A DNA stretch of 64,000 nt, from the NCBI RefSeq assembly GCF_030384885.1, contig NZ_CP128613.1; one strand, written 5' to 3'. Each line of letters starts with the position of its first letter. The stretch's first letter is position 1. The translations under genes and the position numbers were made by a program. This DNA comes from Escherichia coli (lineage in GTDB: Bacteria > Pseudomonadota > Gammaproteobacteria > Enterobacterales > Enterobacteriaceae). The notes beneath the pieces were generated by a model. The model searched no databases. It was given only the letters and a program-made list of their open reading frames with translations, and was not told the DNA's origin. Shown one piece after another: positions 1 through 60,124 of this stretch.

Positions 1-994
1 GCACCGTTCCGGCGATCAGCTGAAAATCACTGCTCACCTGGCGATCGCTACCAAACGGGTAAAAGGTTTTCTCTTCAATGGCTTTTAGCAACATTGCCTG
101 TTCGTCTGCGCCCAGTTCGCCAATCTCATCAAGAAACAACATGCCGCCGTTGGCACTGCGTAATAATCCTTCACGAGATTCCCGCGCCCCGGTAAACGCG
201 CCTTTTACATGACCAAACAGCGTCGACATGGCGGTATCACCGCGCAGGGTGGCGCAGTTCACTTCCACAAACGCGCCGCTAAACTGATGCCGCGCCTGTT
301 TTAACTCGAAGATGCGTCGTGCCAGAAACGACTTTCCCGCACCGGTCGGGCCGTTAAGCAGGATCGGTGCGCGGGATTTGATCGCCACTTTTTCGATCTG
401 CTCAATCATGCGGTTGAAGTGGGCGTTACGCGTGGCAATGCCGGATTTGAGGAAATCGAGGGTTTGCTGGCGTTCTTCGGCAAAGCGGCTGGCGATGGCG
501 TTATAACGGCTTAAATCGAGATCGATAATCGTCACTTCACCTGCGCCGCGCGGTTGTTCTTTTTTGCGCGGTGGTGAAGATTGTATCAACCGGGCGGGCA
601 AGTAACGCGCTTCTGCCAGCAGAAACCAGCAAATCTGCGCGACGTGGGTACCGGTGGTGATGTGAATTAAATAGTCTTCTTTATCAGGTTCGAACGCGTA
701 ACCACGGGCGAAATCATGCAGGCAGGCGTAAACCTCCTCGAAATCCCACGGGTTATGCAGTTCAATCTCAACGCTCACCACTTCTGTTTCTGGCGAAACA
801 TTGGCGATATCGCGTTTAAGCGTTTCAAACAGCGAGCGTGAGCGGGCGTCGTGCAACAATTCCAGTCGATTGATGACTAACGATTCTTGCTGGCATAGAC
901 AGAGTGACGGACGCCATTTCGACCATCGCTGACTGCCGCGCCCGGCATAATCCAGTACGGTGCCGACAAAGCCAAAAGCCACTGTTTTACGCAT
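1..994 (-). CDS. rtcR: Sigma-54-dependent transcriptional activator RtcR, N-terminal part only; the 3' end of the gene lies beyond the window start
   Basis: Reverse-strand translation from ATG (complement of 992-994) reads MRKTVAFGFVGTVLDYAGRGSQRW..., matching remembered RtcR; divergent from rtcBA with a sigma-54 promoter between them. The track ORF 312-506(+) is antisense to it. Confidence 0.85.
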   Translation of the reverse strand, partial: MRKTVAFGFVGTVLDYAGRGSQRWSKWRPSLCLCQQESLVINRLELLHDARSRSLFETLKRDIANVSPETEVVSVEIELHNPWDFEEVYACLHDFARGYAFEPDKEDYLIHITTGTHVAQICWFLLAEARYLPARLIQSSPPRKKEQPRGAGEVTIIDLDLSRYNAIASRFAEERQQTLDFLKSGIATRNAHFNRMIEQIEKVAIKSRAPILLNGPTGAGKSFLARRIFELKQARHQFSGAFVEVNCATLRGDTAMSTLFGHVKGAFTGARESREGLLRSANGGMLFLDEIGELGADEQAMLLKAIEEKTFYPFGSDRQVSSDFQLIAGTV

Positions 995-1127
995 CTTAGA
1001 TATCCTTATAAAAGACGATATTTCATTATCGGCGAATTGGCTTTGCGGGAAATCTCCGCTTACGGACGTAAAGATTTAATCTATTAAAAACAATGAATTA
1101 AAAAATTAAGCTGCTTATTTAATTTTC

Positions 1128-1143
1128 TGGCACGACGGTTGCA
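1128..1143 (+). promoter_or_regulatory. Sigma-54 (-24/-12) promoter for rtcBA
   Basis: TGGCAC-gacgg-TTGCA is a perfect match to the TGGCAC-N5-TTGCW consensus, about 40 bp upstream of the rtcB ATG. Confidence 0.8.
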
Positions 1144-1181
1144 ATTATCAGGACAGCAAACAACGAAAAGAGAAAAACAAA

Positions 1182-2408
1182 ATGAATTACGAATTACTGA
1201 CCACTGAAAATGCCCCGGTAAAAATGTGGACCAAAGGCGTGCCGGTAGAGGCCGATGCGCGTCAGCAACTTATTAATACGGCGAAGATGCCGTTTATTTT
1301 CAAACATATTGCGGTAATGCCGGATGTACACCTGGGTAAAGGTTCCACCATTGGTAGCGTGATCCCAACCAAAGGAGCGATTATTCCGGCGGCGGTGGGG
1401 GTAGATATCGGTTGTGGAATGAACGCACTGCGAACTGCGTTAACGGCGGCTGACCTGCCTGAAAACCTGGCGGAGCTGCGTCAGGCGATTGAAACTGCCG
1501 TGCCGCACGGACGTTCCAATAATCGTAGCCGTCGTGATAAAGGCGCATGGGAGCATCCGCCTGTTAACGTCGATGCTAAATGGGCCGAGCTGGAAGCTGG
1601 TTATCAGTGGTTAACGCAAAAATATCCGCGTTTCCTTAACACTAATAACTATAAACATCTGGGAACGCTGGGAACGGGTAACCACTTTATTGAAATCTGC
1701 CTTGATGAGTCGGACCAGGTGTGGATTATGCTGCACTCCGGTTCACGCGGAATTGGTAATGCCATCGGGACTTACTTTATCGATCTGGCACAAAAAGAGA
1801 TGCAGGAAACGCTTGAAACGTTGCCATCGCGTGACCTGGCGTACTTTATGGAAGGTACGGAATACTTTGATGATTACCTGAAAGCGGTGGCCTGGGCGCA
1901 GCTTTTTGCCAGCCTTAACCGCGATGCGATGATGGAAAATGTGGTAACGGCGTTGCAGAGCGTTACGCAGAAAACGGTAAGACAGCCACAAACGCTGGCG
2001 ATGGAAGAGATCAACTGTCACCACAACTATGTGCAAAAAGAACAGCACTTTGGCGAAGAGATCTATGTGACGCGTAAAGGCGCGGTGTCTGCGCGTGCTG
2101 GTCAATATGGAATTATTCCCGGTTCGATGGGGGCGAAAAGCTTTATTGTCCGTGGGCTGGGAAATGAAGAGTCGTTCTGTTCGTGCAGCCACGGTGCCGG
2201 GCGGGTAATGAGCCGTACTAAAGCGAAAAAACTGTTCAGCGTGGAAGATCAAATTCGTGCCACCGCGCATGTGGAATGCCGTAAAGATGCCGAAGTGATC
2301 GACGAAATCCCGATGGCGTATAAAGATATCGACGCGGTGATGGCGGCACAAAGCGATCTGGTGGAAGTTATCTACACCCTGCGTCAGGTGGTGTGTGTAA
2401 AAGGATAA
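1182..2408 (+). CDS. rtcB: RNA-splicing ligase RtcB
   Basis: 408 aa ORF; MNYELLTTENAPVKMWTKGVPVEADARQQL... matches remembered RtcB. Confidence 0.95.
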   Translation: MNYELLTTENAPVKMWTKGVPVEADARQQLINTAKMPFIFKHIAVMPDVHLGKGSTIGSVIPTKGAIIPAAVGVDIGCGMNALRTALTAADLPENLAELRQAIETAVPHGRSNNRSRRDKGAWEHPPVNVDAKWAELEAGYQWLTQKYPRFLNTNNYKHLGTLGTGNHFIEICLDESDQVWIMLHSGSRGIGNAIGTYFIDLAQKEMQETLETLPSRDLAYFMEGTEYFDDYLKAVAWAQLFASLNRDAMMENVVTALQSVTQKTVRQPQTLAMEEINCHHNYVQKEQHFGEEIYVTRKGAVSARAGQYGIIPGSMGAKSFIVRGLGNEESFCSCSHGAGRVMSRTKAKKLFSVEDQIRATAHVECRKDAEVIDEIPMAYKDIDAVMAAQSDLVEVIYTLRQVVCVKG

Positions 2409-3428
<1,020 letters not shown>

Positions 3429-3470
3429 TATAAAGATGTAAGCCGGAACCGACGTATTATCCGGCTAAAC

Positions 3471-6182
<2,712 letters not shown>

Positions 6183-6698
6183 TCACTTCACTGTGGAAAA
6201 TGAGGAAATATTATTTTTTTTGCGCTTCGTAATTAATGGTTATAAGGTCGGCCAGAAACCCTTCTAATGCAAGCGATGACGTTTTTTTATGTGTCTGAAT
6301 TTGCACTGTGTCACAATTCCAAATGTTTATTAACAACTCACCTAATAACGACGCTGATGCAGCGTGAATACTGGGTTTTACGGTATTTTCCTCATGTTCA
6401 TCAGTTTCATTTAAGCAAGGGAGTCTTCTCAATTCCTGATGAAAGAGCCATCTAAAAAGAGGATCTTAATAAACCTATTAAGAATGAGATGGAACAAACT
6501 GGATGTTTTACTTATGAAACTGTTTCACTCCTTTACTTAATTTATAGAGTTACCTTCCGCCTTTTGAAAATACACAACGGCCATTTTTTGCACCTAGATA
6601 CAGATTTTCTGCGCTGTATGGCATTGATTTGCTGCTAATCCTGTGGATTGCACTAGGTTTAAGTGGTCGAGATCACATTTCCTTGCTCATCCCCGCAA

Positions 6699-6728
6699 CT
6701 CCTCCCTGCCTAATCCCCCGCAGGATGA
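6699..6728 (+). promoter_or_regulatory. Candidate MalT boxes of the malPQ promoter
   Basis: GGATGA at 6723-6728 and the reverse complement of GGAGGA at 6699-6704, matching the GGA(T/G)GA MalT box, 70-100 bp upstream of malP. Confidence 0.5.
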
Positions 6729-6775
6729 GGAAGGTCAACATCGAGCCTGGCAAACTAGCGATAACGTTGTGTTGA

Positions 6776-9193
<2,418 letters not shown>

Positions 9194-9202
9194 GGAAGCT
9201 CG

Positions 9203-11287
9203 ATGGAAAGCAAACGTCTGGATAATGCCGCGCTGGCGGCGGGGATCAGCCCCAATTACATCAATGCCCACGGTAAACCGCAGTCGATTAGCGCCGAAAC
9301 CAAACGGCGTTTGCTTGACGCGATGCATCAACGTACCGCCACGAAAGTGGCGGTAACGCCAGTCCCGAATGTCATGGTCTATACCAGCGGCAAAAAAATG
9401 CCGATGGCGGTGGAGGGCAGCGGCGAATATAGCTGGCTGCTGACCACCGAAGAAGGAACGCAGTACAAAGGCCATGTAACGGGGGGCAAAGCGTTCAATT
9501 TACCGACGAAGTTGCCGGAAGGTTATCACACGTTGACACTCACCCAGGACGACCAGCGCGCGCATTGCCGGGTGATTGTCGCCCCGAAACGCTGTTACGA
9601 ACCGCAGGCGTTGCTGAATAAACAAAAGCTGTGGGGCGCCTGCGTCCAGCTTTATACGCTGCGATCGGAAAAAAACTGGGGTATTGGGGATTTTGGCGAT
9701 CTCAAAGTGATGCTGGTGGATGTGGCAAAACGTGGCGGGGCTTTCATCGGTCTGAACCCGATTCATGCGCTCTATCCGGCAAATCCGGAAAGTGCCAGTC
9801 CGTATAGCCCGTCTTCTCGTCGCTGGCTAAATGTGGTTTATATCGACGTTAACGCCGTCGAAGATTTCCATCTTAGCGAAGAGGCTCAGGCCTGGTGGCA
9901 GTTACCGACCACGCAACAGACGCTGCAACAGGCACGGGATGCCGACTGGGTCGATTACTCCACCGTCACTGCGCTGAAAATGACAGCATTGCGGATGGCG
10001 TGGAAAGGTTTTGCGCAACGTGATGATGAGCAGATGGCCGCGTTTCGCCAGTTTGTTGCAGAGCAGGGCGACAGCCTGTTCTGGCAGGCGGCGTTTGACG
10101 CGTTACATGCCCAGCAAGTGAAAGAAGACGAAATGCGCTGGGGCTGGCCTGCATGGCCAGAGATGTATCAGAACGTGGATTCACCAGAAGTGCGTCAGTT
10201 CTGCGAAGAACATCGTGATGACGTCGATTTTTATCTCTGGTTGCAGTGGCTGGCTTACAGCCAGTTTGCCGCCTGCTGGGAGATAAGCCAGGGCCATGAA
10301 ATGCCGATTGGCTTGTACCGTGATCTGGCGGTTGGCGTAGCAGAGGGTGGAGCAGAAACCTGGTGCGACCGGGAGTTGTATTGCCTGAAAGCGTCGGTGG
10401 GCGCGCCGCCGGATATCCTCGGCCCGTTGGGGCAGAACTGGGGATTGCCGCCGATGGATCCGCATATCATCACCGCGCGTGCCTATGAACCGTTTATCGA
10501 GCTGTTGCGTGCCAATATGCAAAACTGCGGCGCGTTGCGAATTGACCATGTGATGTCGATGCTGCGTTTGTGGTGGATACCGTATGGCGAGACGGCAGAT
10601 CAGGGCGCGTATGTTCACTATCCGGTAGATGATCTGCTCTCGATTCTGGCACTCGAAAGTAAGCGCCATCGCTGCATGGTGATTGGTGAAGACCTCGGCA
10701 CTGTACCGGTAGAGATTGTCGGTAAACTGCGCAGCAGCGGTGTGTACTCCTACAAAGTGCTCTATTTCGAAAGCGACCACGAGAAGACATTCCGCGCGCC
10801 GAAAGCGTATCCGGAGCAGTCGATGGCGGTTGCGGCGACACACGACCTGCCTACACTGCGTGGCTACTGGGAGAGCGGGGATTTAACACTGGGCAAAACG
10901 CTGGGGCTGTACCCGGATGAAGTGGTATTGCGCGGTCTGTATCAGGATCGCGAACTGGCGAAGCAAGGGTTACTGGATGCACTGCATAAACATGGTTGCC
11001 TGCCAAAACGTGCGGGGCATAAGGCATCGTTAATGTCGATGACGCCGATGCTTAATCGTGGTTTGCAACGTTATATCGCTGATAGTAACAGTGCTCTGTT
11101 AGGGCTTCAGCCAGAAGACTGGCTGGATATGGCCGAACCGGTAAATATTCCCGGAACCAGTTACCAGTATAAAAACTGGCGGCGCAAGCTTTCCGCAACG
11201 CTTGAGACGATGTTTGCTGATGATGGCGTGAACAAGTTGCTGAAGGATTTGGACAGACGGCGCAGAGCGGCTGCGAAGAAGCAGTAG
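9203..11287 (+). CDS. malQ: 4-alpha-glucanotransferase (amylomaltase)
   Basis: 694 aa; MESKRLDNAALAAGISPNYINAHGKPQ...; 9 bp downstream of the malP stop. Confidence 0.97.
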   Translation: MESKRLDNAALAAGISPNYINAHGKPQSISAETKRRLLDAMHQRTATKVAVTPVPNVMVYTSGKKMPMAVEGSGEYSWLLTTEEGTQYKGHVTGGKAFNLPTKLPEGYHTLTLTQDDQRAHCRVIVAPKRCYEPQALLNKQKLWGACVQLYTLRSEKNWGIGDFGDLKVMLVDVAKRGGAFIGLNPIHALYPANPESASPYSPSSRRWLNVVYIDVNAVEDFHLSEEAQAWWQLPTTQQTLQQARDADWVDYSTVTALKMTALRMAWKGFAQRDDEQMAAFRQFVAEQGDSLFWQAAFDALHAQQVKEDEMRWGWPAWPEMYQNVDSPEVRQFCEEHRDDVDFYLWLQWLAYSQFAACWEISQGHEMPIGLYRDLAVGVAEGGAETWCDRELYCLKASVGAPPDILGPLGQNWGLPPMDPHIITARAYEPFIELLRANMQNCGALRIDHVMSMLRLWWIPYGETADQGAYVHYPVDDLLSILALESKRHRCMVIGEDLGTVPVEIVGKLRSSGVYSYKVLYFESDHEKTFRAPKAYPEQSMAVAATHDLPTLRGYWESGDLTLGKTLGLYPDEVVLRGLYQDRELAKQGLLDALHKHGCLPKRAGHKASLMSMTPMLNRGLQRYIADSNSALLGLQPEDWLDMAEPVNIPGTSYQYKNWRRKLSATLETMFADDGVNKLLKDLDRRRRAAAKKQ

Positions 11288-11299
11288 AGAGCGGTTGAT

Positions 11300-11320
11300 G
11301 CCGGATGCGATGCATCCGGC
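11300..11320. terminator. Bidirectional hairpin between convergent malQ and gntT
   Basis: GCCGGATGC-gat-GCATCCGGC, a 9 bp stem with 3 nt loop. Confidence 0.6.
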
Positions 11321-11331
11321 AGTCAGTGTTA

Positions 11332-12648
11332 TCAAATCACCATATTCAGCAGCAGACAGCCTACCAGACCGCACACCGAGATAATGGTTTCCAGCATCGA
11401 CCAGGACTTGATGGTCTCGCCGATAGTCAGGTTAAAGTACTCTTTGAATAGCCAGAAGCCCGGATCGTTCACGTGAGAGAAAATCACACTACCGGAACCA
11501 ACCGCAATAACCATCAGTTCCGGGCTAACACCCGTCGTTGCAATTAGTGGTGCCGCGATACCCCCCGCAGTGATTGCCGCAACGGTTGCGGAACCCAGCG
11601 CGATACGCAGTACGGCGGCAATCGACCAGGCCATCAGCAGCGGAGAAATGTTGGTTTCGTGCATCATGGAAGCAATGTATTTGTCCACGCCGCTGTCTAC
11701 CAGCACCTGCTTGAACGCACCGCCACCACCGATGATCAACAGCATCATCGCGATGATTTTGATGGAAGAAACCAGCGTGTCGTTAATCTGATCCATTGAA
11801 CGACCACGGTTCAGACCAAAGGTGAACATCGCAATCAACACGGCAATCAGCGTTGCCATTACCGGGTCACCGAGGAACTCCGCCACTGGCAGGAAAGCGT
11901 GACCTTTCGGCAGGATCATTTCGGCAATTGCACGCATCGCCATCAGCACAACCGGCACCAGAGAAGTCCAGACGCTGACGCCAAAGCTTGGCATCTCTTC
12001 TTCGCTGAAGGTTTTCGCGCTGTACAGACCTTCCGGGATTGGCTTATCGATACCTTTCAGCACGCGAGCGTAAACCGGACCGGCGAGAATAACGGTTGGG
12101 ATTGCCAGAATAGTTCCGTACAGCAGGGTCTTACCCATATCGGCATTGAAAATGGTGGCAATCGCAGTTGGGCCCGGATGTGGCGGCAGGAAGCCGTGGG
12201 TCACAGACAGCGCAGCCGCCATTGGTACACCAACATACAGCAGCGGAATATTCGCGGAAGCCGCGATGGTAAACACCAGCGGCAGCATTAGCACGAAGCC
12301 CACTTCATAGAACAGGGCAAAACCGACAGTAAAACCGGTTAACACTACCGCCCATTGGATGTGTTTTTTACCAAATTTGGCAATCAGCGTGGTGGCGATA
12401 CGCTGTGCACCACCGCAGTCTGCCAGCATTTTGCCCAGCATCGCGCCAAAACCCATGATCAGGGCAAGGCTACCGAGCGTCCCGCCGACACCAGCTTTGA
12501 TGGAGCCAATAACTTTATCCAGCGGCATTCCCTGCATTAATCCAACAGCAAGCGCCACGAGGACGAGAGCGATGAATCCGTTCATTTTGAAGCGGATCAT
12601 CAGGAGCAACAACAAGATTACACCGATAGCAACAATGACTAATGGCAT
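11332..12648 (-). CDS. gntT: High-affinity gluconate:H+ symporter
   Basis: 438 aa polytopic membrane protein; MPLVIVAIGVILLLLLMIRFKMNGF... Confidence 0.95.
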   Translation of the reverse strand: MPLVIVAIGVILLLLLMIRFKMNGFIALVLVALAVGLMQGMPLDKVIGSIKAGVGGTLGSLALIMGFGAMLGKMLADCGGAQRIATTLIAKFGKKHIQWAVVLTGFTVGFALFYEVGFVLMLPLVFTIAASANIPLLYVGVPMAAALSVTHGFLPPHPGPTAIATIFNADMGKTLLYGTILAIPTVILAGPVYARVLKGIDKPIPEGLYSAKTFSEEEMPSFGVSVWTSLVPVVLMAMRAIAEMILPKGHAFLPVAEFLGDPVMATLIAVLIAMFTFGLNRGRSMDQINDTLVSSIKIIAMMLLIIGGGGAFKQVLVDSGVDKYIASMMHETNISPLLMAWSIAAVLRIALGSATVAAITAGGIAAPLIATTGVSPELMVIAVGSGSVIFSHVNDPGFWLFKEYFNLTIGETIKSWSMLETIISVCGLVGCLLLNMVI

Positions 12649-24856: not shown

Positions 24857-26140
24857 ATGCAACTTACCAACGAAGAACAAGTACAGATTGCTCGTATAAA
24901 AGAAAAAATCCCACGCATTGCCGCACTGGATCCTGAATGTAAGTTATTCGGTTCTGAAGGTTGGAAATATCAATGGCCGAAGCCTGCCAGCGAGGCGGAA
25001 ATAGCTTCCTGGGAGAAAAAACATAGCGTCACTTTGCCACGGGAATATCGAATTTTTCTTCGCTATATCGCTAATGGCGGTCCGGCACATGCCTACGGTC
25101 TTGAATCTTTAGGCGGTACAGATATTTATGGCGATATAACAAAAGAAAGCCCTGTACCGCTTTATATGACGCAGCAGGATGTTGATGTGTTGAATGCTGG
25201 CCGTACAGAAGATGATGAAGAATATAGTTTTTTTGACGGCGCATTGACCATTCTCACCCTGGGATGTACTTATGATATTTGCCTGGTGGTGACGGGGCAG
25301 TATCGCGGAAGGTTAATGCTGACTGATGGTGATGAAGATTATCCGTTTGATTTTATATATGATAAAAATTTCCTCAACTGGTATGAACGCTGGCTGGACG
25401 ATTTTATTGCTGGCATGAGTATGAAGGGTTTCGATAGAAGTTTGCCAGGAACGCAAATTCAACTGCGTGAGTGGTTTTTAACTGAGAAAATCCCGGATTT
25501 ACGTAGATCCATTTTATTCTCGCTATGCCGTTTTCCACAGATAGAACCCGAAACTTTTGCCCTTTGGGAACATGTTTGCCGTACAGAGAATGATAAAGAA
25601 TTGTGTGAAGAGGCATTCATAAGATTACGCCAAAAAAAAGTTTCTTGTGCTGCAGATATTTTTCGACTCTATTTTGCAATGTCAGATGAATTACGTGATA
25701 TTGCTATTAAAGATCTCCGTTTTGCCTGTAGAGATAGTGTGGTGAATATTGAGGATTATATTCATTCACTGTTAATAATAATGCCTGAACTTGACGATGA
25801 CACTCTATCCTCAGCTGTCTTTGCTATACGAGAAACAGAGTATAATAAATATGATACTTTTCTGCCGCTTCTCGAACGTATCACTGATGACCGTCAGCAA
25901 ACATTATTGTGGGCGATGAGTAAGGCGCCTGATTTCAATGAAAGCCGAGGATTCGTTGAGTTGGTATTACCGCTTTTTGCATCATCAAAGATGGAGAATG
26001 TAAGGAAGGCTATTTTGTTGCTCATTGAAGTTAAAGATAATCGTATTCCACCATTGGTTGATGAAGCTGCAACTCGTTTCCCTGAACTGACCATTTTACG
26101 AGAAAACTACTATCTCAGGACGTGGGGACATAAGCCATAA
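24857..26140 (+). CDS. Accessory protein: SMI1/KNR4 (SUKH-1)-like N-terminal domain plus about 230 aa helical C-terminal extension
   Basis: N-terminus carries the SMI1/KNR4 signature (EAEIASWEKKHSVTLPREYRIFLRYIANGG ... DYPFDFIYDKNFLNWYERWLDDF). ATG at 24857 has RBS AAGGA 9 bp upstream; the track used TTG at 24854. AT-richer than flanks by eye; no K-12 counterpart remembered at this locus. Confidence 0.7.
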   Translation: MQLTNEEQVQIARIKEKIPRIAALDPECKLFGSEGWKYQWPKPASEAEIASWEKKHSVTLPREYRIFLRYIANGGPAHAYGLESLGGTDIYGDITKESPVPLYMTQQDVDVLNAGRTEDDEEYSFFDGALTILTLGCTYDICLVVTGQYRGRLMLTDGDEDYPFDFIYDKNFLNWYERWLDDFIAGMSMKGFDRSLPGTQIQLREWFLTEKIPDLRRSILFSLCRFPQIEPETFALWEHVCRTENDKELCEEAFIRLRQKKVSCAADIFRLYFAMSDELRDIAIKDLRFACRDSVVNIEDYIHSLLIIMPELDDDTLSSAVFAIRETEYNKYDTFLPLLERITDDRQQTLLWAMSKAPDFNESRGFVELVLPLFASSKMENVRKAILLLIEVKDNRIPPLVDEAATRFPELTILRENYYLRTWGHKP

Positions 26141-26177
26141 ATTAATGGTTCAGAAATGATCTAACGCGGAGAAAAAT

Positions 26178-26708
26178 ATGATCAGGGAACATATTCAGCA
26201 AGCGATAAATAATAGGTTAGCATTTGATGGCCCATTCAATGTTGTTCCTGAACCTGCAAGCACTGCGTTTGATAGCCGGATCCCGACATTGAAAAACGGT
26301 GTCTGGCAGAAGGCCAGCCCTATGTTGCAGGCGCGTTTTGCACATTGTGGACGTTGGTTAAGCGCTACACATGGAAGCTGGCTAAGTATAAGTGACATGG
26401 AAACGCTTTGGCAGGAACACATAGAAGATACGTTTCTTGATGAAATCAAAATGAATGCTGTAGCTTCAAGTGATAATTGGGATAACCATGCCTTGGGACT
26501 ATTTCGTTCTCATCGCCTGTCACTTTTTGCCGGTAGTGATTACAGTTATGAAATGGTTTTTCTCCTTTGGCTAGATAGTACCGTTGAGCCAGAGGTCTGG
26601 GTTTATGACTGCAATGGGGAATCACGTTATAAAGATCTTAATGATTACCTGAATGCATATATTAATGATGACGTAAGCGCCTGTGAGCGCTCTTGGCGAG
26701 TAGAATGA
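26178..26708 (+). CDS. Accessory small protein (176 aa), uncharacterised, possibly SUKH/immunity-like
   Basis: C-terminal segment EPEVWVYDCNGESRYKDLNDYLNAYIND resembles the C-terminal block of SUKH-type proteins; RBS GGAG 7 bp upstream; same strand as and 37 bp after the preceding ORF. Confidence 0.55.
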   Translation: MIREHIQQAINNRLAFDGPFNVVPEPASTAFDSRIPTLKNGVWQKASPMLQARFAHCGRWLSATHGSWLSISDMETLWQEHIEDTFLDEIKMNAVASSDNWDNHALGLFRSHRLSLFAGSDYSYEMVFLLWLDSTVEPEVWVYDCNGESRYKDLNDYLNAYINDDVSACERSWRVE

Positions 26709-27331
26709 ATAGCCCCCCTTGCCCCTTTGATCCACAAACCGCACATTACCTCGGCACAGTGCAAATCCACTACACCTCAACCACCTTCAACGCTGCCGTT
26801 AAGCATTATACCTATCACATTAAAAAGCGTTTTAAAGGGGTTAAATGGGGAATTGGTACCGCTGGCTTATTGGCTATATTGCCCATGATCCCACAATGGT
26901 TGAAACCTTCTCATGACTTTAAACTCAACGCAATCAGTACGTTAATTCTTCTATTAATGTTGCCACTCCTCTTATCAATGTTCCTGTTAATCAGCAGAAG
27001 AATTAACGATTTTAAGTCAAAAACAAAGCAAGTTACTTTTACGAAACCCGTGCGTTATGCGTTTTATTTCGAGGGGATTGTTTTTTATGAATCTCATCAG
27101 CAGGGCATACTTCGCTGGGAAGATTTTTATGGCATTGAGTATGAAGAAGATTATTTGTGGCTTTTTCTGCATTTACCGAAGAGTTTTCCCAGAGAAGCGA
27201 CGAAAGCGTTTTGCGATATTTTCATTCCCACCAGTGCGATAAAAGCGCAGCCTGAACTGGATACGTTTTTTCGTGAAACACGCCACTCGCTGGATTATCT
27301 GTTTGTCCCGTTTAATTCTGACAGAAAATAA
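26705..27331 (+). CDS. Accessory membrane protein, YcxB-like (two TM helices plus C-terminal bPH-like domain)
   Basis: ATG at 26705 overlaps the upstream TGA stop (ATGA); the track used TTG at 26693. Two hydrophobic helices (WGIGTAGLLAILPMIPQWL; ISTLILLLMLPLLLSMFLLI) then ...ILRWEDFYGIEYEEDYLWLFLHLPKSF..., typical of YcxB-like proteins. Confidence 0.6.
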   Translation: MNSPPCPFDPQTAHYLGTVQIHYTSTTFNAAVKHYTYHIKKRFKGVKWGIGTAGLLAILPMIPQWLKPSHDFKLNAISTLILLLMLPLLLSMFLLISRRINDFKSKTKQVTFTKPVRYAFYFEGIVFYESHQQGILRWEDFYGIEYEEDYLWLFLHLPKSFPREATKAFCDIFIPTSAIKAQPELDTFFRETRHSLDYLFVPFNSDRK

Positions 27332-52076: not shown

Positions 52077-53302
52077 TGGCGCGATTTGTGGTGTTAGTGA
52101 TTGATAGCTTTGGCGTAGGCGCAATGAAAGATGTCATGTTGGTGCGCCCACAGGATGCCGGGGCGAATACCTGTGGTCACATCCTGAGCCAGTTGCCGCA
52201 TTTGCAGCTACCAACGCTGGAGAAAATGGGGCTAATCAACGCATTAGGTTATGCGCCAGGCGATATGCAGCCGTCAGACTCCGCAACCTGGGGCGTGGCA
52301 GAGTTGCAACATGAAGGTGGCGACACCTTTATGGGGCATCAGGAAATTTTAGGCACGCGCCCGTTACCGCCGCTGCGGATGCCCTTTCGCGATGCGATTG
52401 ACCGTGTTGAACAGGCATTAGTCACCGCTGGCTGGTGGGTTGAGCGCCGTGGCGATGATCTGCAATTTCTGTGGGTCAATCAGGCGGTTGCGATTGGCGA
52501 TAATCTCGAGGCGGATTTAGGCCAAGTCTATAACATTACCGCCAATCTCTCTGTGATCTCTTTTGACGACGCAATCAAAATTGGTCGTATCGTGCGTGAC
52601 CAGGTACAGGTCGGTCGGGTCATTACATTTGGCGGCCTGTTAACCGACAGTCAGCGTATTCTCGATGCCGCAGAAAGCAAAGAAGGGCGCTTTATTGGCA
52701 TCAACGCGCCGCGTTCTGGCGCTTATGACAACGGTTTCCAGGTCGTGCATATGGGCTATGGCGTCGATGAAAAAGTGCAGGTGCCACAAAAACTGTATGA
52801 AGCAGGCGTGCCAACCGTGCTGGTGGGTAAGGTGGCAGATATCGTCAGCAATCCTTATGGCGTGAGCTGGCAAAACCTGGTGGATAGCCAGCGGATTATG
52901 GATATCACCCTCGACGAATTTAACACGCATCCGACGGCGTTTATTTGCACCAACATTCAGGAAACTGACCTCGCTGGTTACGCAGAAGACGTCGCACGCT
53001 ATGCCGAACGTTTGCAGGTGGTTGACCGTAACCTTGCCCGGCTTGTTGAGGCGATGCAGCCAGATGATTGCCTGGTCGTGATGGCGGATCACGGTAACGA
53101 TCCGACCATTGGTCACAGCCACCATACCCGTGAAGTAGTGCCAGTGCTGGTTTATCAGCAAGGGCTGGTCCACACGCAACTCGGTGTGCGCACCACGCTT
53201 TCTGATGTGGGGGCTACCGTGTGTGAATTTTTCCGTGCGCCACCGCCACAAAATGGTCGCTCTTTTCTTTCCTCCCTCCGGTTTGCAGGAGACACCCTAT
53301 GA
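52076..53302 (+). CDS. yhfW: Putative phosphopentomutase-like metalloenzyme YhfW
   Basis: 408 aa; [35 protein letters not shown]..., resembling phosphopentomutase/alkaline-phosphatase superfamily N-termini. Confidence 0.8.
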
Positions 53303-54177
53303 GTTTTGATCCGACGGGCTTCACCCTCGCCCATGAGCATCTGCATATTGATCTCTCCGGCTTTAAAAACAACGTGGACTGCCGCCTTGATCAGTATGCG
53401 TTCATTTGCCAGGAGATGAACGACCTGATGGCACTGGGTGTGCGTAATGTGATTGAGATGACCAACCGTTACATGGGGCGCAATGCACAATTTATGCTCG
53501 ATGTAATGCACGAGACGGGGATCAACGTGGTGGCCTGCACCGGTTATTACCAGGACGCGTTTTTCCCGCAACATGTGGCGACCCGCAGCGTGCAGGAACT
53601 GGCGCAGGAGATGGTCGATGAAATTGAACAGGGTATCGATGGCACGGAGCTGAAAGCCGGGATCATCGCGGAGATCGGCTCCAGCGAAGGAAAGATTACG
53701 CCGCTGGAAGAGAAGGTGTTTATTGCCGCCGCGTTGGCGCATAACCAGACCGGATGCCCCATCTCCACGCATACGTCGTTCAGCACTATGGGGCTGGAGC
53801 AATTGGCTCTGTTGCAAGCCCACGGAGTTGATCTTTCGCGCGTCACCGTCGGGCACTGCGATCTGAAAGACAACCTCGACAACATTTTGAAGATGATCGA
53901 TCTCGGCGCGTATGTGCAGTTCGACACCATCGGCAAGAACAGTTACTACCCGGACGAAAAGCGCATTGCGATGCTCCACGCGCTACGTGACCGTGGTTTG
54001 CTGAACCGCGTCATGCTGTCGATGGATATTACGCGCCGCTCCCATTTAAAAGCCAACGGTGGTTATGGCTATGACTATTTATTGACCACCTTTATTCCGC
54101 AATTGCGCCAGTCAGGATTCAGTCAGGCCGATGTGGATGTGATGTTACGTGAAAATCCCTCTCAATTTTTCCAATAA
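53299..54177 (+). CDS. php: Phosphotriesterase homology protein (amidohydrolase superfamily)
   Basis: 292 aa; [32 protein letters not shown]...; HxH metal-binding motif. Confidence 0.88.
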
Positions 54178-54187
54178 GGACAGACTC

Positions 54188-54541
54188 ATGAAAAAGATTG
54201 GTGTTGCAGGCTTACAGCGTGAGCAGATTAAAAAAACCATTGAAGCGACGGCTCCTGGCTGTTTTGAAGTTTTCATTCACAACGACATGGAAGCGGCGAT
54301 GAAGGTGAAATCCGGGCAACTGGATTACTACATCGGCGCGTGTAATACCGGTGCGGGCGCGGCATTGTCGATTGCCATCGCGGTGATTGGCTATAACAAA
54401 AGTTGCACCATTGCCAAGCCGGGCATTAAAGCGAAAGACGAGCATATCGCCAAAATGATCGCCGAAGGGAAAGTGGCGTTTGGGCTTTCCGTTGAGCATG
54501 TCGAACACGCGATTCCGATGCTGATTAACCATCTGAAATAA
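54188..54541 (+). CDS. yhfU: Uncharacterised protein YhfU
   Basis: MKKIGVAGLQREQIKKTIEATAPG... (117 aa); the track ORF starts 13 codons upstream. Confidence 0.75.
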   Translation: MKKIGVAGLQREQIKKTIEATAPGCFEVFIHNDMEAAMKVKSGQLDYYIGACNTGAGAALSIAIAVIGYNKSCTIAKPGIKAKDEHIAKMIAEGKVAFGLSVEHVEHAIPMLINHLK

Positions 54542-54552
54542 AAGGCACGACT

Positions 54553-55857
54553 ATGGATCTGTATATTCAGATTATCGTGGTGGCGTGCCTGACGGGTATG
54601 ACATCGCTTCTGGCGCATCGCTCGGCAGCCGTTTTTCATGACGGTATCCGCCCGATCCTGCCGCAACTGATTGAAGGCTATATGAACCGTCGTGAGGCGG
54701 GGAGTATCGCTTTTGGTCTGAGCATTGGTTTTGTGGCCTCGGTGGGGATCTCTTTTACCCTGAAAACCGGGTTGCTCAACGCATGGTTACTCTTTCTTCC
54801 TACCGATATCCTCGGTGTCCTGGCGATAAACAGCCTGATGGCGTTTGGCCTTGGTGCACTCTGGGGCGTACTGATCCTCACCTGTCTGCTGCCGGTAAAC
54901 CAGCTGCTGACCGCGCTACCGGTGGATGTATTAGGTAGTCTGGGGGAATTAAGCTCGCCAGTGGTTTCAGCTTTTGCACTGTTCCCGTTGGTGGCGATTT
55001 TCTACCAGTTTGGCTGGAAGCAAAGTCTGATCGCCGCCGTGGTAGTGTTGATGACCCGTGTGGTGGTAGTGCGCTATTTCCCGCATCTCAATCCGGAATC
55101 CATCGAAATCTTTATTGGCATGGTGATGCTGCTGGGGATCGCGATAACTCACGACCTGCGTCATCGTGATGAAAATGACATCGATGCCAGCGGTATGTCG
55201 GTGTTTGAAGAACGTACGTCGAGGATTATCAAAAATTTACCCTATATCGCCATCGTAGGGGCGCTGATTGCCGCCGTTGCCAGCATGAAGATTTTTGCTG
55301 GTAGTGAAGTGTCGATCTTCACCCTGGAGAAAGCATATTCCGCAGGTGTAACGCCGGAACAATCACAAACGCTGATCAACCAGGCGGCGCTGGCGGAATT
55401 TATGCGCGGGCTGGGTTTTGTGCCGTTGATTGCCACCACCGCGTTAGCAACAGGTGTGTATGCAGTTGCGGGCTTTACCTTTGTTTATGCGGTGGGCTAT
55501 CTCTCGCCGAATCCGATGGTTGCGGCGGTATTAGGCGCAGTGGTTATTTCGGCAGAAGTCCTGTTACTTCGTTCGATCGGCAAATGGCTGGGACGCTACC
55601 CATCGGTACGTAATGCGTCGGATAACATCCGTAACGCCATGAATATGCTGATGGAAGTGGCTCTGCTGGTCGGTTCGATTTTCGCAGCAATTAAGATGGC
55701 GGGCTATACCGGATTCTCTATCGCGGTTGCCATTTACTTCCTCAACGAATCTCTGGGCCGTCCGGTACAGAAAATGGCGGCACCGGTCGTGGCAGTAATG
55801 ATCACTGGCATCCTGCTGAATGTTCTTTACTGGCTTGGTCTGTTCGTTCCGGCTTAA
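54553..55857 (+). CDS. yhfT: Inner membrane protein YhfT (putative transporter)
   Basis: 434 aa polytopic membrane protein; MDLYIQIIVVACLTGMTSLLAHRSAAVFHDG... Confidence 0.82.
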   Translation: MDLYIQIIVVACLTGMTSLLAHRSAAVFHDGIRPILPQLIEGYMNRREAGSIAFGLSIGFVASVGISFTLKTGLLNAWLLFLPTDILGVLAINSLMAFGLGALWGVLILTCLLPVNQLLTALPVDVLGSLGELSSPVVSAFALFPLVAIFYQFGWKQSLIAAVVVLMTRVVVVRYFPHLNPESIEIFIGMVMLLGIAITHDLRHRDENDIDASGMSVFEERTSRIIKNLPYIAIVGALIAAVASMKIFAGSEVSIFTLEKAYSAGVTPEQSQTLINQAALAEFMRGLGFVPLIATTALATGVYAVAGFTFVYAVGYLSPNPMVAAVLGAVVISAEVLLLRSIGKWLGRYPSVRNASDNIRNAMNMLMEVALLVGSIFAAIKMAGYTGFSIAVAIYFLNESLGRPVQKMAAPVVAVMITGILLNVLYWLGLFVPA

Positions 55858-55868
55858 AGAAGGCACCT

Positions 55869-56954
55869 ATGAAGACGTTTCCTTTGCAAAGCCTGACGCT
55901 TATTGAAGCGCAGCAAAAGCAGTTTGCGTTGGTGGATACGATTTGCCGCCATTTTCCCGGCGCGGAGTTTCTTACCCGCGGGGATTTAGGCTTAACGCCG
56001 GGGCTGAATCAACCGCGCATTACTCAGCGTGTGGAGCAGGTGCTGGCTGATGCGTTTCATGCGCCAGCGGCGGCGCTGGTGCAGGGCGCGGGTACTGGAG
56101 CAATTCGCGTCGGGCTGGCAGCTTTGCTCAAATCGGGGCAGCGTCTTCTGGTGCATGACGCGCCTGTTTACCCGACGACTCAGGTCATTATTGAGCAGAT
56201 GGGGCTGACGCTTATTACAGCTGATTTCAACGACCTGTCGGCGCTTAAAGAGGCCATTGAAGAGCAACAACCTGATGCCGCGCTGGTGCAGCATACGCGC
56301 CAGCAGCCGCAGGACAGCTATGTACTGGCAGATGTGCTGGCAACGCTGCGCGCAGCAGGTGTTCCAGCCTTAACCGATGACAACTATGCGGTGATGAAGG
56401 TGGCGCGCATTGGCTGTGAATGCGGCGCGAATGTTTCGACATTCTCCTGTTTCAAGCTGTTTGGACCAGAGGGTGTTGGCGCGGTGGTAGGCGATGCCGA
56501 TGTTATCAACCGTATTCGCGCTACGCTTTACTCTGGCGGCAGCCAGATTCAGGGCTCACAGGCGCTGGAAGTCTTGCGTGGTTTGGTGTTTGCGCCAGTG
56601 ATGCACGCGGTGCAGGCGGGGGTATCTGAACGGTTGCTGGCTTTACTTAACGGTGGCGCAGTGGCGGAAGTGAAAAGCGCGGTGATTGCCAATGCGCAGT
56701 CGAAGGTGTTGATTGTGGAGTTTCATCAACCGATTGCCGCCAGAGTGCTTAAAGAGGCGCAAAAGCGCGGCGCGTTGCCTTACCCGGTTGGTGCAGAGTC
56801 GAAATATGAGATCCCGCCGCTTTTTTATCGCCTTTCCGGAACGTTTCGCCAGGCGAATCCGCAATTAGAACATTGTGCGATTCGTATTAACCCGAATCGC
56901 AGCGGTGATGAGACGGTATTGCGGATTTTGCGCGAGAGTATTGCCAGCGTTTAA
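55869..56954 (+). CDS. yhfS: Putative PLP-dependent enzyme YhfS
   Basis: 361 aa; MKTFPLQSLTLIEAQQKQFALVDTICRHFPGAEFLTRGDLGLTPG... Confidence 0.8.
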   Translation: MKTFPLQSLTLIEAQQKQFALVDTICRHFPGAEFLTRGDLGLTPGLNQPRITQRVEQVLADAFHAPAAALVQGAGTGAIRVGLAALLKSGQRLLVHDAPVYPTTQVIIEQMGLTLITADFNDLSALKEAIEEQQPDAALVQHTRQQPQDSYVLADVLATLRAAGVPALTDDNYAVMKVARIGCECGANVSTFSCFKLFGPEGVGAVVGDADVINRIRATLYSGGSQIQGSQALEVLRGLVFAPVMHAVQAGVSERLLALLNGGAVAEVKSAVIANAQSKVLIVEFHQPIAARVLKEAQKRGALPYPVGAESKYEIPPLFYRLSGTFRQANPQLEHCAIRINPNRSGDETVLRILRESIASV

Positions 56955-56992
56955 TTCTGGGAACGATGTTTTCGCAGAGTATGGAGAAAAAT

Positions 56993-57018
56993 ACGCCCTC
57001 GGAAAATTCAGAGGGCGT
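56993..57018 (-). terminator. Hairpin terminator between convergent yhfS and yhfL
   Basis: ACGCCCTC-ggaaaattca-GAGGGCGT, an 8 bp stem; T-run on the minus strand downstream of the yhfL stop. Confidence 0.55.
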
Positions 57019-57058
57019 TAGCTCATTAAATCGGTGTTAGCCGATTTCTGTCAGAGAC

Positions 57059-57226
57059 TTACTGTGCAGTAGGACCGCAACCGCCAATGATTTTAGAAAT
57101 AGAAATTGCTGGGTGCAGCAGGTAGTCGTAAGAGCAGTTCTTATCACGGTTTTCAATATGACCAGTACATGCAGTTAACGTAGCCAGTACCGCACCAACC
57201 AGTGCAACTTTAATAAATTTGTTCAT
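57059..57226 (-). CDS. yhfL: Small lipoprotein YhfL (55 aa)
   Basis: Translated by hand from the reverse strand: MNKFIKVALVGAVLATLTACTGHIENRDKNCSYDYLLHPAISISKIIGGCGPTAQ, with lipobox LTAC. Absent from the ORF track because it is under 60 aa. Confidence 0.85.
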   Translation of the reverse strand: MNKFIKVALVGAVLATLTACTGHIENRDKNCSYDYLLHPAISISKIIGGCGPTAQ

Positions 57227-57472
57227 TTACATTCCCTATGTATTATATATTAATTAATATTCATTTATTATATGAATATAAGCAGACTGCTCATTAAGAA
57301 CGATACAGGAATATTTAATTGGCGTCAGTGAGTGAATGACTTAATTTTGTAAGTCGCTGTAACGGTGAAAATAACCCATTAGCAAATGATATTTACTAAG
57401 AGGTTATGATTTATTTACTGAATATATAAAAAGAGTGATAAAGAGGGCCAGAATTATCTGGCCCGGGTAAAA

Positions 57473-58846
57473 TTAATGGTTAGAGAACCAGTTCAATTTA
57501 TCGCGCAGGCTAACGACCCGACCAATAATAATTAATGAGGGGCTGTTCATTTGCTGCGCCAGCTCGCCCAGTTGCGAGAGCGTACCGTCAATCACGCGTT
57601 GCGTTACCGCCGTACCGTTTTCGACAATCGCCACCGGCATTTCGCCAGGCATTCCGTGTTCAATCAGTTTTTGCTGAATGGTCGCGGCCTGATTCAGCCC
57701 CATATAGAACACTAGCGTCTGTTTTTCGGCTGCCAGGTTTTCCCAGTCCAGCTCGCCACCGGTTTTTAAGTGTCCGGTGATTAAGCGCACGCTCTGAGCA
57801 TAATCGCGATGCGTGAGGGGAATGCCCGAATAGGCAGAGCAACCAGACGCTGCGGTAATACCCGGAACTACTGAGAACGGAATACCCGCATTGCACAGTG
57901 TTTCAAGCTCTTCGCCACCACGGCCAAAAATAAACGGATCGCCGCCTTTCAGCCGCACCACGCGTTTACCTTTTTGCGCTTCCCGCAGCAGGATCTGGTT
58001 AATCTCTTCCTGCGGTACGCAGTGATACCCCGCGCGTTTACCGACGAAGACACGATCCGCATCGCGCCGTACCAGATTCATAATATCGTCTGAAACCAGA
58101 CGGTCGTAGACCACCACATCTGCCTGCTGAATTTGTTGCAGACCTTTTAGTGTCAGCAGACCGGCATCGCCCGGACCTGCGCCAACCAGCACCACTTCAC
58201 CGCGATGATCGAGCGGTTCATTGATTAACTGTTCGGTCGTTTCGGTAATGGCTTTCTGATCGTTGTTCGCCAGCGACTGCGCCAGGCGATCATTAACGAA
58301 CAGTTTTTCCCAGAAACGGCGACGTTCACCCATCGTGGCGAACTGTCGTTTGACCCGACCGCGTAACTGCCCCGCATATTTTGCTACCTGGCCGAGATGC
58401 AGCGGCAGCAGTGATTCAAGTTTTTCGCGCAACAGTCGCGCCAGAACCGGAGAGGTGCCGCCAGAGGAGACCGCTACCATGAGAGGGGAGCGGTCAATAA
58501 TCGACGGCATAATAAAGCTGGCGGCTTTCGGCGCATCGACCACGTTACAGAAGATACGACGAGATTCGGCGGCTTCGCTGACACGCTGGTTAAGCGCGTC
58601 ATCATCCGTCGCCGCAATTGCCAGCCAGCAGGTGTCGAGAAGGCTTTCATCAAATGGCCCTTCGACGAGGGTTAACATGCCTGCATCTGCCCATGCGGTG
58701 AACTGTGGAATAAACGCTAATGCATTCACCGTTAAGCGAGCACCTGCGTCTAACAGCAACCTTGCTTTGCGTTCCGCGACATCACCACCGCCGACAATCA
58801 AACAGTCGCGGTCGCGTAATTGGCAAAATATAGGCAAATGATCCAC
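57473..58846 (-). CDS. cysG: Siroheme synthase (multifunctional)
   Basis: 457 aa; [43 protein letters not shown]... Confidence 0.96.
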
Positions 58847-58864
58847 GTAAAAACCCCTTAATAA

Positions 58865-59671
58865 TTAACCGGCAGCCGTTTCAGTTTGATTAAATTTGTC
58901 CGCAACCGGACGATTAGCTTTCGGCGTAGCATACCAATAACCCAATCCCATGAATACGGCACCCGATAAAGTATTACCCAGCGTCACCCACAGCAGGTTA
59001 TGACCAATACCCGCCAGCGTGTAGGCTTCGCTGTGGTTGCCGAACCATGAGAGCGCGAACAGCGTCATGTTAGCGATGGAGTGCTCGTAACCGGACGCAA
59101 TAAACGCCAGCAGACACCACCAGATTGCGATAAATTTCGCCGCGCCTTCAGTACGCAGTGCCATCCAGATTGCCAGACAAACCAGCCAGTTACACAATGC
59201 GCCTTTGAAGAACAGTACCATTGCCGGTGCGGTGGTTTTAGCCAGCGCGACGGAGTGAACAATACTGGTATCTACTGGCAAAAGGCTACCACCGCCCCAG
59301 CTATAAAGCATGGCAACAAAGACGGAACCGACCAGGTTACCCAGCCAGGTTTGCGGCAGGATTGCCCACATTTGCCCGTGGCTAATGGTGCCCGCTTTCA
59401 CCCCAAAGGTGAGGAACATGGTGTGTCCGGTGAACAGTTCAGAACCGGCGATAATGACCAGCGTTAAGGCGATACCGAAGGTCGCGCCCATCACCAGAGG
59501 ACGTACGGACGGATCGAGCAAATTACCGAGCGTGAAAATCAGGATGATCCCCAGCCCCACATACGCGCCCGCCATCGCGGAGCTTACCCAGAAGCCGAGC
59601 GGGTTATTTGCCGACAGGCGTGCAATGCGCGCAGCGTTAGCCGCACACTTATTAATAGTGTCTGTAAACAT
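58865..59671 (-). CDS. nirC: Nitrite transporter NirC (FNT family)
   Basis: 268 aa membrane protein; MFTDTINKCAANAARIARLSANNPLGFWVSSAMAGAYVGLGI... Confidence 0.95.
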   Translation of the reverse strand: MFTDTINKCAANAARIARLSANNPLGFWVSSAMAGAYVGLGIILIFTLGNLLDPSVRPLVMGATFGIALTLVIIAGSELFTGHTMFLTFGVKAGTISHGQMWAILPQTWLGNLVGSVFVAMLYSWGGGSLLPVDTSIVHSVALAKTTAPAMVLFFKGALCNWLVCLAIWMALRTEGAAKFIAIWWCLLAFIASGYEHSIANMTLFALSWFGNHSEAYTLAGIGHNLLWVTLGNTLSGAVFMGLGYWYATPKANRPVADKFNQTETAAG

Positions 59672-59797
59672 TTGATTATCCTTTAAAAAATAAAAACAAA
59701 AAATAAAACAAAAAGTTTAAAAAATGTCCTGCAATATACTTAAGGTCATTACAGGACAATGCAAAAAGGGGAGGCATTGCGCCTCCCGTTAAAACAA

Positions 59798-60124
59798 TTA
59801 ACCGCGTAGCTGTACCACGCCGTCTTTCACTCGTGCCTCGTAATGCTTGACGGAAAACTGTTCATCTTCCATGCATAAACCGTCGCTTAAGCGAAAACGC
59901 TGTTTTTTCAGCGGACTGGCGACCCACAGCTCGCCCTGGTGTTCCGCAATCAGCCCGCGTGACAGCACGCTGGATTCGAAGAACGGATCGATGTTGCTGA
60001 TCGCAAACACCTGGTCGCTGTGATACGGGCGGAAAATCGCTACCTGCTCGTCACCTAACAGCGCGCAGACGCCGGTTTCAGGCAGGATGTCATCAATTTT
60101 GCAGATGTCTTTCCACTGGCTCAT
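59798..60124 (-). CDS. nirD: Nitrite reductase (NADH) small subunit
   Basis: 108 aa; MSQWKDICKIDDILPETGVCALLGDEQVAIFRPY..., Rieske-like. Confidence 0.95.
   Translation of the reverse strand: MSQWKDICKIDDILPETGVCALLGDEQVAIFRPYHSDQVFAISNIDPFFESSVLSRGLIAEHQGELWVASPLKKQRFRLSDGLCMEDEQFSVKHYEARVKDGVVQLRG

Follow-up and report, generated by a model that had tools for sequence, protein, structure and literature searches.

An uninterrupted yhfS-yhfL junction in Escherichia cryptic clade I as a probable ancestral, frl-free site

Background

The frlABCDR genes of Escherichia coli K-12 are associated with the utilisation of fructoselysine and psicoselysine (Wiame et al. 2002, 2004, as cited in PMC5996543 and PMC3505186). 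Fang et al. (2018) reported that phylogroup B2 lacks both the fructoselysine transporter and the frl operon, and metabolic models in the same work predicted growth on fructoselysine in 0-3% of B2 strains versus 69-91% of the others (PMC5996543). The absence of the pathway has also been termed "a hallmark of B2 strains", with reference to Monk et al. (bioRxiv 10.1101/2025.09.14.675865). Didelot et al. (2012) place frl among the gene clusters gained by some lineages. A preprint on frl regulation makes no mention of yhfL, yhfS or the phylogenetic distribution of the operon.

Earlier work has already described the presence/absence polymorphism of frl and tied it to phylogroup and metabolic niche (PMC5996543; bioRxiv 10.1101/2025.09.14.675865). 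The locus described here makes small additions at most, namely the frl-negative state in Escherichia cryptic clade I, an emerging source of Shiga-toxin-producing strains, and an explicit direction for the event.

Results and discussion

Anatomy of the junction

The stretch of DNA analysed here (the window) is 64,000 nucleotides long. The site of interest is the spacer between yhfS and yhfL (56955-57058), which by its sequence and by comparison with K-12 is the unoccupied form of the site where frl-positive E. coli carry a 5.2-kb frlRDCBA block. The preliminary description had placed yhfS and yhfL next to each other and convergent, with about 100 bp between their stop codons. The sequence and the list of open reading frames (ORFs) agree with this, and the measured spacer is 104 bp long.

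The gene to the left is yhfS (55869-56954, plus strand), a 361-aa ORF with a TAA stop at 56952-56954 and the final gene of the yhfZYXW-php-yhfUTS cluster. Its product matches the Pfam families YhfS-like_C (E 2.5e-44) and Aminotran_1_2, and by these domains is a PLP-dependent aminotransferase-fold enzyme. YhfS is 94.5% identical to its K-12 counterpart by tblastn, versus above 99% for YhfT and CysG. To the right is yhfL (57059-57226, minus strand, stop 57059-57061), a 55-aa ORF. Its product matches DUF4223 (E 5e-38), is 100% identical to K-12 YhfL (WP_001031834.1; tblastn) and, by family assignment, is a small lipoprotein-like protein of the DUF4223/YhfL family. The right-hand flank is anchored by cysG (57473-58846, minus strand), an ORF that RefSeq annotates as siroheme synthase in NZ_CP027579.1, a near-identical genome. 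The window CysG is 99.1% identical to that of K-12.

The names yhfS and yhfL are also given by the annotation of NZ_CP027579.1. The same annotation gives the gene order as trpS, yhfZ, yhfY, yhfX, yhfW, php, yhfU, yhfT and yhfS, followed on the opposite strand by yhfL, cysG, nirC, nirD and nirB. A simple promoter/terminator scan found no promoter in the junction region. The two other sites flagged by the same scan, one inside yhfL and one near cysG, are irrelevant to the spacer.

Hairpins in the spacer

The whole spacer folds at -34.1 kcal/mol (RNAfold; z = -3.4), and 0 of 200 shuffled sequences were as stable. The predicted structure has a strong GC-rich hairpin at 56993-57018, a weaker AT-rich hairpin at 57028-57047 and a marginal third. 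The spacer had been described as holding a single hairpin. One GC-rich hairpin does dominate, but it is not the only one.

The main stem is 8 bp long with 6 G-C pairs and is formed by ACGCCCTC (56993-57000) and GAGGGCGT (57011-57018). Read on the minus strand, the hairpin begins 41 nt past the yhfL stop, and the stem is followed by ATTTTTCT (56992-56985) as a U-rich tract. Since this is a GC-rich stem-loop with a U-rich tract downstream of the yhfL stop, the element (56985-57018, minus strand) is a putative intrinsic terminator of yhfL; folding and conservation together identify it as a conserved Rho-independent terminator with a predicted termination activity. The main stem is unchanged in 11 of 11 sequences from E. 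coli, Escherichia L025 and E. albertii, and being invariant it gives no covariation evidence. Pairs in the upper stem change across the 11 sequences yet remain paired. The hairpin is also kept just downstream of yhfL in the frl-positive K-12, O157:H7 and E69. The simple terminator scanner skipped this hairpin, the loop of which is longer than the 8-nt limit of the scanner. On the plus strand an A-run precedes the hairpin and there is no U-run after it; therefore, the end of the yhfS transcript is not readily explained by the main hairpin.

The second hairpin (57028-57047, AAATCGG-TGTTAG-CCGATTT) was also predicted by RNAfold and lies directly after the yhfL stop. In the RNAalifold consensus it forms 7 pairs, with substitutions to G-U and A-U and a few broken pairs, and it is less conserved than the main hairpin. 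An Rfam scan of 56500-57600 (E up to 1) found no known small RNA in the spacer. Matches to mir-2944 and SNORA54 were rejected as eukaryotic chance matches far below the gathering scores.

Lineage of the window

The window differs from chromosome NZ_CP027579.1 of strain 2013C-4282 by only 3 mismatches and 1 indel over 64 kb. Okuno et al. 2023 (PMC10100065) list this strain in Escherichia cryptic clade I and as stx1-positive. At the junction, identity to the window is 94.6-96.8% in just 17 other complete genomes, among them EC42405, which the paper likewise names as clade I. At yhgF these clade-I-like genomes are 97.5-98.6% identical to the window. In all other E. coli the identity does not exceed 93% at the junction and is about 96.4% at yhgF. 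The window is from Escherichia cryptic clade I, and its source is 2013C-4282 or a near-identical isolate; the few differences probably reflect a separate version of the assembly or a very closely related isolate.

The site is empty in 18 of the 18 clade-I-like complete genomes, and frlB and frlD are found in none of them. These genomes share a spacer haplotype that is 94.6-100% identical within the group. The paper describing the clade I strains (PMC10100065) makes no mention of frl or fructoselysine. A different genome, Escherichia L025, was considered as a clade I representative and rejected, being only 91.6% identical to the window and belonging to a different Escherichia lineage.

The region from yhfS to cysG (55869-58846) is unusually divergent, with 89-94% identity to most E. 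coli versus about 96.4% for yhgF. Several empty-site haplotypes are present in the species, at roughly 89-90%, 91%, 92.6% and 93% identity to the window.

The window also has features unrelated to the junction. Between envZ and pckA (24857-27331, plus strand) there are three extra genes, one of which encodes a 427-aa SMI1/KNR4 (SUKH-1) protein (Pfam E 1.2e-6). SUKH proteins are often immunity proteins. The other two ORFs, of 176 and 190 aa, have no Pfam match. This 2.8-kb stretch is found in 18 of 5,426 complete E. coli genomes, a number equal to the size of the clade-I-like set, and may be a clade-I-specific islet. In other E. coli, envZ and pckA are either adjacent or separated by a RelE/ParE and NadS pair. 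In addition, rtcB (about 1183-2408, plus strand) is annotated as frameshifted in NZ_CP027579.1, and rtcR and rtcA look intact.

Absence of frl from this genome

The K-12 proteins FrlA, FrlB, FrlC, FrlD and FrlR have no match in the 64-kb window by tblastn. The best E value was 0.84, for FrlD; FrlB gave a best E of 3.3, and FrlA, FrlC and FrlR gave no match, with E above 1.6. The reported absence of frlABCDR from the locus is thus borne out.

A tBLASTn search for the pathway elsewhere in the genome had also been proposed, and the search was negative for the window and 150 kb of plasmid by tblastn and for the chromosome by blastn of frlB and frlD. The chromosome was searched with a joined query (2,150 bp window yhgF plus K-12 frlB plus frlD; blastn, word 11). 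NZ_CP027579.1 ranked first, with 100% identity on the yhgF part, and was matched in one place only, yhgF. The query found 1 place in the other clade-I-like genomes and 2 places in frl-positive genomes. frlB and frlD are absent from the chromosome at the DNA level, at which a pathway of less than about 65% nucleotide identity would escape. The evidence for frlA, frlC and frlR chromosome-wide is indirect: across 5,426 complete genomes, those with an unbroken junction and those carrying the block form almost complementary sets, and in the frl-negative genomes listed only short repeats of the block are matched. The Frl proteins have no match (tblastn, E up to 0.01) over 150 kb of the two plasmids of 2013C-4282, which takes in all of unnamed1 but 4.5 kb and all of unnamed2 but about 19 kb, its tra region. 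There are no frl genes in the plasmid annotation that was examined. Its gene content predicts that the strain would not grow on fructoselysine or psicoselysine.

Plasmid unnamed2 of 2013C-4282 is a 119-kb virulence plasmid with ehxCABD, espP, saa and iha. It also has an L-lactate permease gene and lutABC-type lactate oxidation genes (L054 10705-15160), which lie outside the window.

Comparison with K-12

In two K-12 derivatives the gene order is yhfL, frlA, frlB, frlC, frlD, frlR and convergent yhfS, which is the order that the preliminary description had given. The K-12 locus and the window both have php, yhfU, yhfT and yhfS on one side and yhfL, cysG, nirC, nirD and nirB on the other, in the same orientation, and both keep the yhfL terminator hairpin. 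The flanks are 94.4-95.3% identical. The distance between the yhfS and yhfL stops is 5,319 bp in K-12, a net difference of about 5.2 kb. The earlier estimate was that about 5-6 kb of K-12 sequence has no counterpart here, and the roughly 5.2 kb found by BLAST falls within it.

The junction was aligned with K-12 as had been suggested. By BLAST, window 52955-56960 corresponds to K-12 locus 1-4006 (94.4%) and window 56981-60000 to K-12 locus 9242-12260 (94.5%). The match halts at 56960 and restarts at 56981, so 20 nt in the window (56961-56980) stand opposite 5,235 nt in K-12, which is the minimal gap as defined by BLAST. The comparison of strain EC18 with K-12 gives a closer view of the same gap. 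The EC18 flanks are 99.6-100% identical to K-12 in 250-bp windows beside the junction, and 29 nt of spacer replace K-12 positions 4002-9243 (5,242 bp). The K-12 locus differs from the window, then, by a block of 5,235-5,242 bp in place of 20-29 nt of what is probably ancestral spacer. Comparing both the window and EC18 with K-12, the spacer core TCTGGGAACGATGTTTTCGCAGAGTATGG (56956-56984) has no counterpart in frl-positive genomes. Allowing up to 6 mismatches, the 29-nt core of EC18 has no match in L004, the K-12 locus made up of the frl block with roughly 4 kb on either side. The shorter 20-nt core of the window has three matches in L004 at up to 6 mismatches, which were taken as chance.

The K-12 block starts 2 nt past the yhfS stop. 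It contains a boxC-like repeat, a REP element, frlR, frlD, frlC, frlB, frlA and about 220 bp of the region upstream of frlA. As read from the sequence, the K-12 spacer between yhfS and frlR (L004 4002-4150) contains the boxC-like repeat GGGGAGAGGGTTAGGGTGAGGGG and a REP-like palindrome.

Frequency of the two states

The uninterrupted junction, scored where a 1,104-bp junction query was covered to 80% or more at a single place, is present in 2,105 of 5,426 complete E. coli genomes. The frl block, defined as at least 80% of the 5.2-kb K-12 block, is present in 3,297, and 24 genomes have neither state. Across a spread listing of the genomes, coverage of the frl query falls from 98% to 1% without intermediates. 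The frl-negative genomes listed match the frl block only in repeat elements of 40-50 bp. The boxC-like repeat and the REP element result in 5-16 extra matches per genome to the block. Since the counts are nearly complementary and the coverage drops from 98% to 1%, the frl polymorphism is common and essentially two-state.

The preliminary description had expected a presence/absence polymorphism of the operon at the level of the population, and the counts of 2,105 empty and 3,297 occupied sites agree. It had also called the polymorphism clean. The two-state part of this claim stands, but the site is not clean, as in frl-positive genomes the block takes the place of about 29 nt of spacer.

An absence call always raises the generic concern that the operon is present in the organism and was lost from the sequence through the assembly or the choice of window. 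Nothing specific in these data favours such an artefact. The closed chromosome NZ_CP027579.1, near-identical to the window with its 3 mismatches and 1 indel, argues against it, as does the same uninterrupted junction in 2,105 independent complete genomes. An artefact is therefore extremely unlikely.

Related arrangements

The arrangement in the window is most like that of the frl-negative B2 type. Strain SE15, which we take to be phylogroup B2, has the same empty site. Its yhfS and yhfL converge on a spacer of 107 bp, which can be aligned end to end with that of the window. The predicted phenotype is also the same, without growth on fructoselysine or psicoselysine. The two differ in lineage. 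The window is from cryptic clade I, and its junction is about 89.7% identical to SE15 versus 94.6-96.8% for the clade-I-like genomes.

In O157:H7, yhfL, its terminator and cysG are conserved as in the window. The O157:H7 strain F7508 (L008 1-7615) differs in having frl, with an internal stop in frlD, and in lacking the yhfZ-yhfS cluster, so that trpS abuts frlR. This is the opposite combination to that of the window, and the trpS-cysG interval therefore holds two independently variable cassettes.

Outgroups were surveyed with YhfL as the anchor, taking up to 10 kb on each side and one genome per species, and CysG, YhfL, YhfS, YhfT, Php and the five Frl proteins were placed by tblastn. In E. 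albertii, Citrobacter, Superficieibacter, Buttiauxella and Enterobacter sp. ENT03, as in the window, yhfL and yhfS are convergent on a spacer of about 60-110 bp with no frl nearby. Outside Escherichia the spacer is not alignable and holds a different terminator, which looks bidirectional (AAAAAACCGGG...CCCGGTTTTTT).

Ancestral state of the site

Among the loci listed in the outgroup survey, frl lies between yhfL and yhfS only in E. coli E69. A Frl homologue was found near yhfL (tblastn, up to 10 kb on each side) in 0 of the 38 non-E. coli loci listed, a set of species that does not include E. fergusonii or most of the named cryptic clades. The genomes in which yhfL adjoins convergent yhfS without frl are E. 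albertii, Escherichia L025, Citrobacter werkmanii, Citrobacter sp. FP75, two Superficieibacter species, Buttiauxella agrestis and Enterobacter sp. ENT03.

The spacer itself carries the same signal. Along its whole length it is orthologous among clade I, B2 SE15, CREC-544, EC18, PS10-3, L025 and E. albertii. The mean column identity of the window spacer with SE15, CREC-544, EC18 and PS10-3 is 93%, and the core of about 29 nt (56956-56984) aligns with the spacers of E. albertii and L025. Because the outgroups are empty and the core is orthologous to that of E. albertii and L025, the empty site is very probably ancestral and the frl block a later insertion that replaced the core, with the direction given by parsimony. 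Relative to the window, the breakpoints are the same (56960 and 56981) in K-12 and in the divergent frl-positive E69. The shared breakpoints suggest a single insertion event, and this points to frl having been inserted once.

The preliminary description had spoken of K-12 sequence that is missing here. The absence is real; however, reading it as a deletion does not hold, since the outgroups point to the empty site as the original state and to an insertion in K-12. A de novo deletion, in which a K-12-like arrangement lost its 5.2-kb frl block by excision and kept a scar, is the most natural reading of missing K-12 sequence, and operon-sized deletions are common in E. coli. Such a deletion cannot recreate a core of 20-29 nt that is orthologous to E. 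albertii and L025. Neither the boxC-like repeat, the REP element, frlR nor the frlA promoter has left a remnant in the spacer, and no direct repeats flank the K-12 block that could mediate excision. De novo deletion is therefore highly improbable and, as far as the alignments go, effectively refuted by the orthologous core.

The other alternative is a secondary loss by allelic replacement. In this case the ancestor of clade I would have had frl, and recombination across yhfS-cysG would have imported an empty allele. EC18, with its empty site and ancestral core between K-12-like flanks, makes exchange of alleles at this locus plausible, and the junction region is unusually polymorphic (89-94% versus 96.4% for yhgF). 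However, all 18 clade-I-like genomes are empty and share a distinct spacer haplotype, to which no other E. coli is more than 93% identical, so any import must predate the diversification of the clade. The site is empty, too, in the outgroups on both sides (E. albertii, L025, Citrobacter and others), and parsimony favours no gain at all over a gain that was later lost. Allelic replacement in clade I is thus unlikely.

EC18 (L050 6471-6636) has flanks of the K-12 type and a YhfS that does not differ from the K-12 protein, but its site is empty and holds the 29-nt core. It is either a surviving pre-insertion haplotype or the product of a short recombinational replacement.

Mode of insertion

A repeat search around the K-12 block gave only short repeats at chance level and none, direct or inverted, at its boundaries. 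No target-site duplication, IS or integrase remnants or att-like repeats were found at the K-12 block boundaries or in the window spacer. With no boundary repeats, models of insertion by a transposon or an integrase were dropped. The GC content of the frl block is 0.538 versus 0.540 and 0.523 for the flanks; the block is therefore without a compositional sign of recent foreign origin.

The reading preferred here, an insertion into an empty site, would start from an ancestor with yhfS and yhfL convergent on a spacer of the 104-bp type, the main element of which would be the yhfL terminator. A 5.2-kb block would have entered once, in a part of E. coli sensu stricto that includes K-12, O157:H7 and B1-type strains (O103, O111). 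The insertion would have taken place just downstream of the yhfS stop and would have replaced about 29 nt of the spacer. The original arrangement would have persisted in clade I, in phylogroup B2 and in several more lineages. If frl is nowhere else in its genome, the present strain would fail in the uptake and splitting of fructoselysine and psicoselysine via FrlA, FrlD, FrlB and FrlC. It is likely, with somewhat less confidence than the polarity of the site itself, that frl was a single gain within E. coli sensu stricto, through an illegitimate event without the hallmarks of a mobile element, and that clade I (18 of 18 genomes) never had it.

Conclusions

The finding is an ordinary one and has little weight beyond bookkeeping. 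The direction of the event does bear on reasoning about selection on the use of Amadori products in the gut. Literature wording to the effect that B2 dispensed with the enzymes probably has the direction backwards. If the insertion reading is true, strains such as EC18 suggest that occupied and empty alleles are still exchanged by recombination. Likewise, if it is true, the use of fructoselysine would be a derived trait that parts the A/B1/E-type lineages from clade I and B2, and not something that B2 has discarded.
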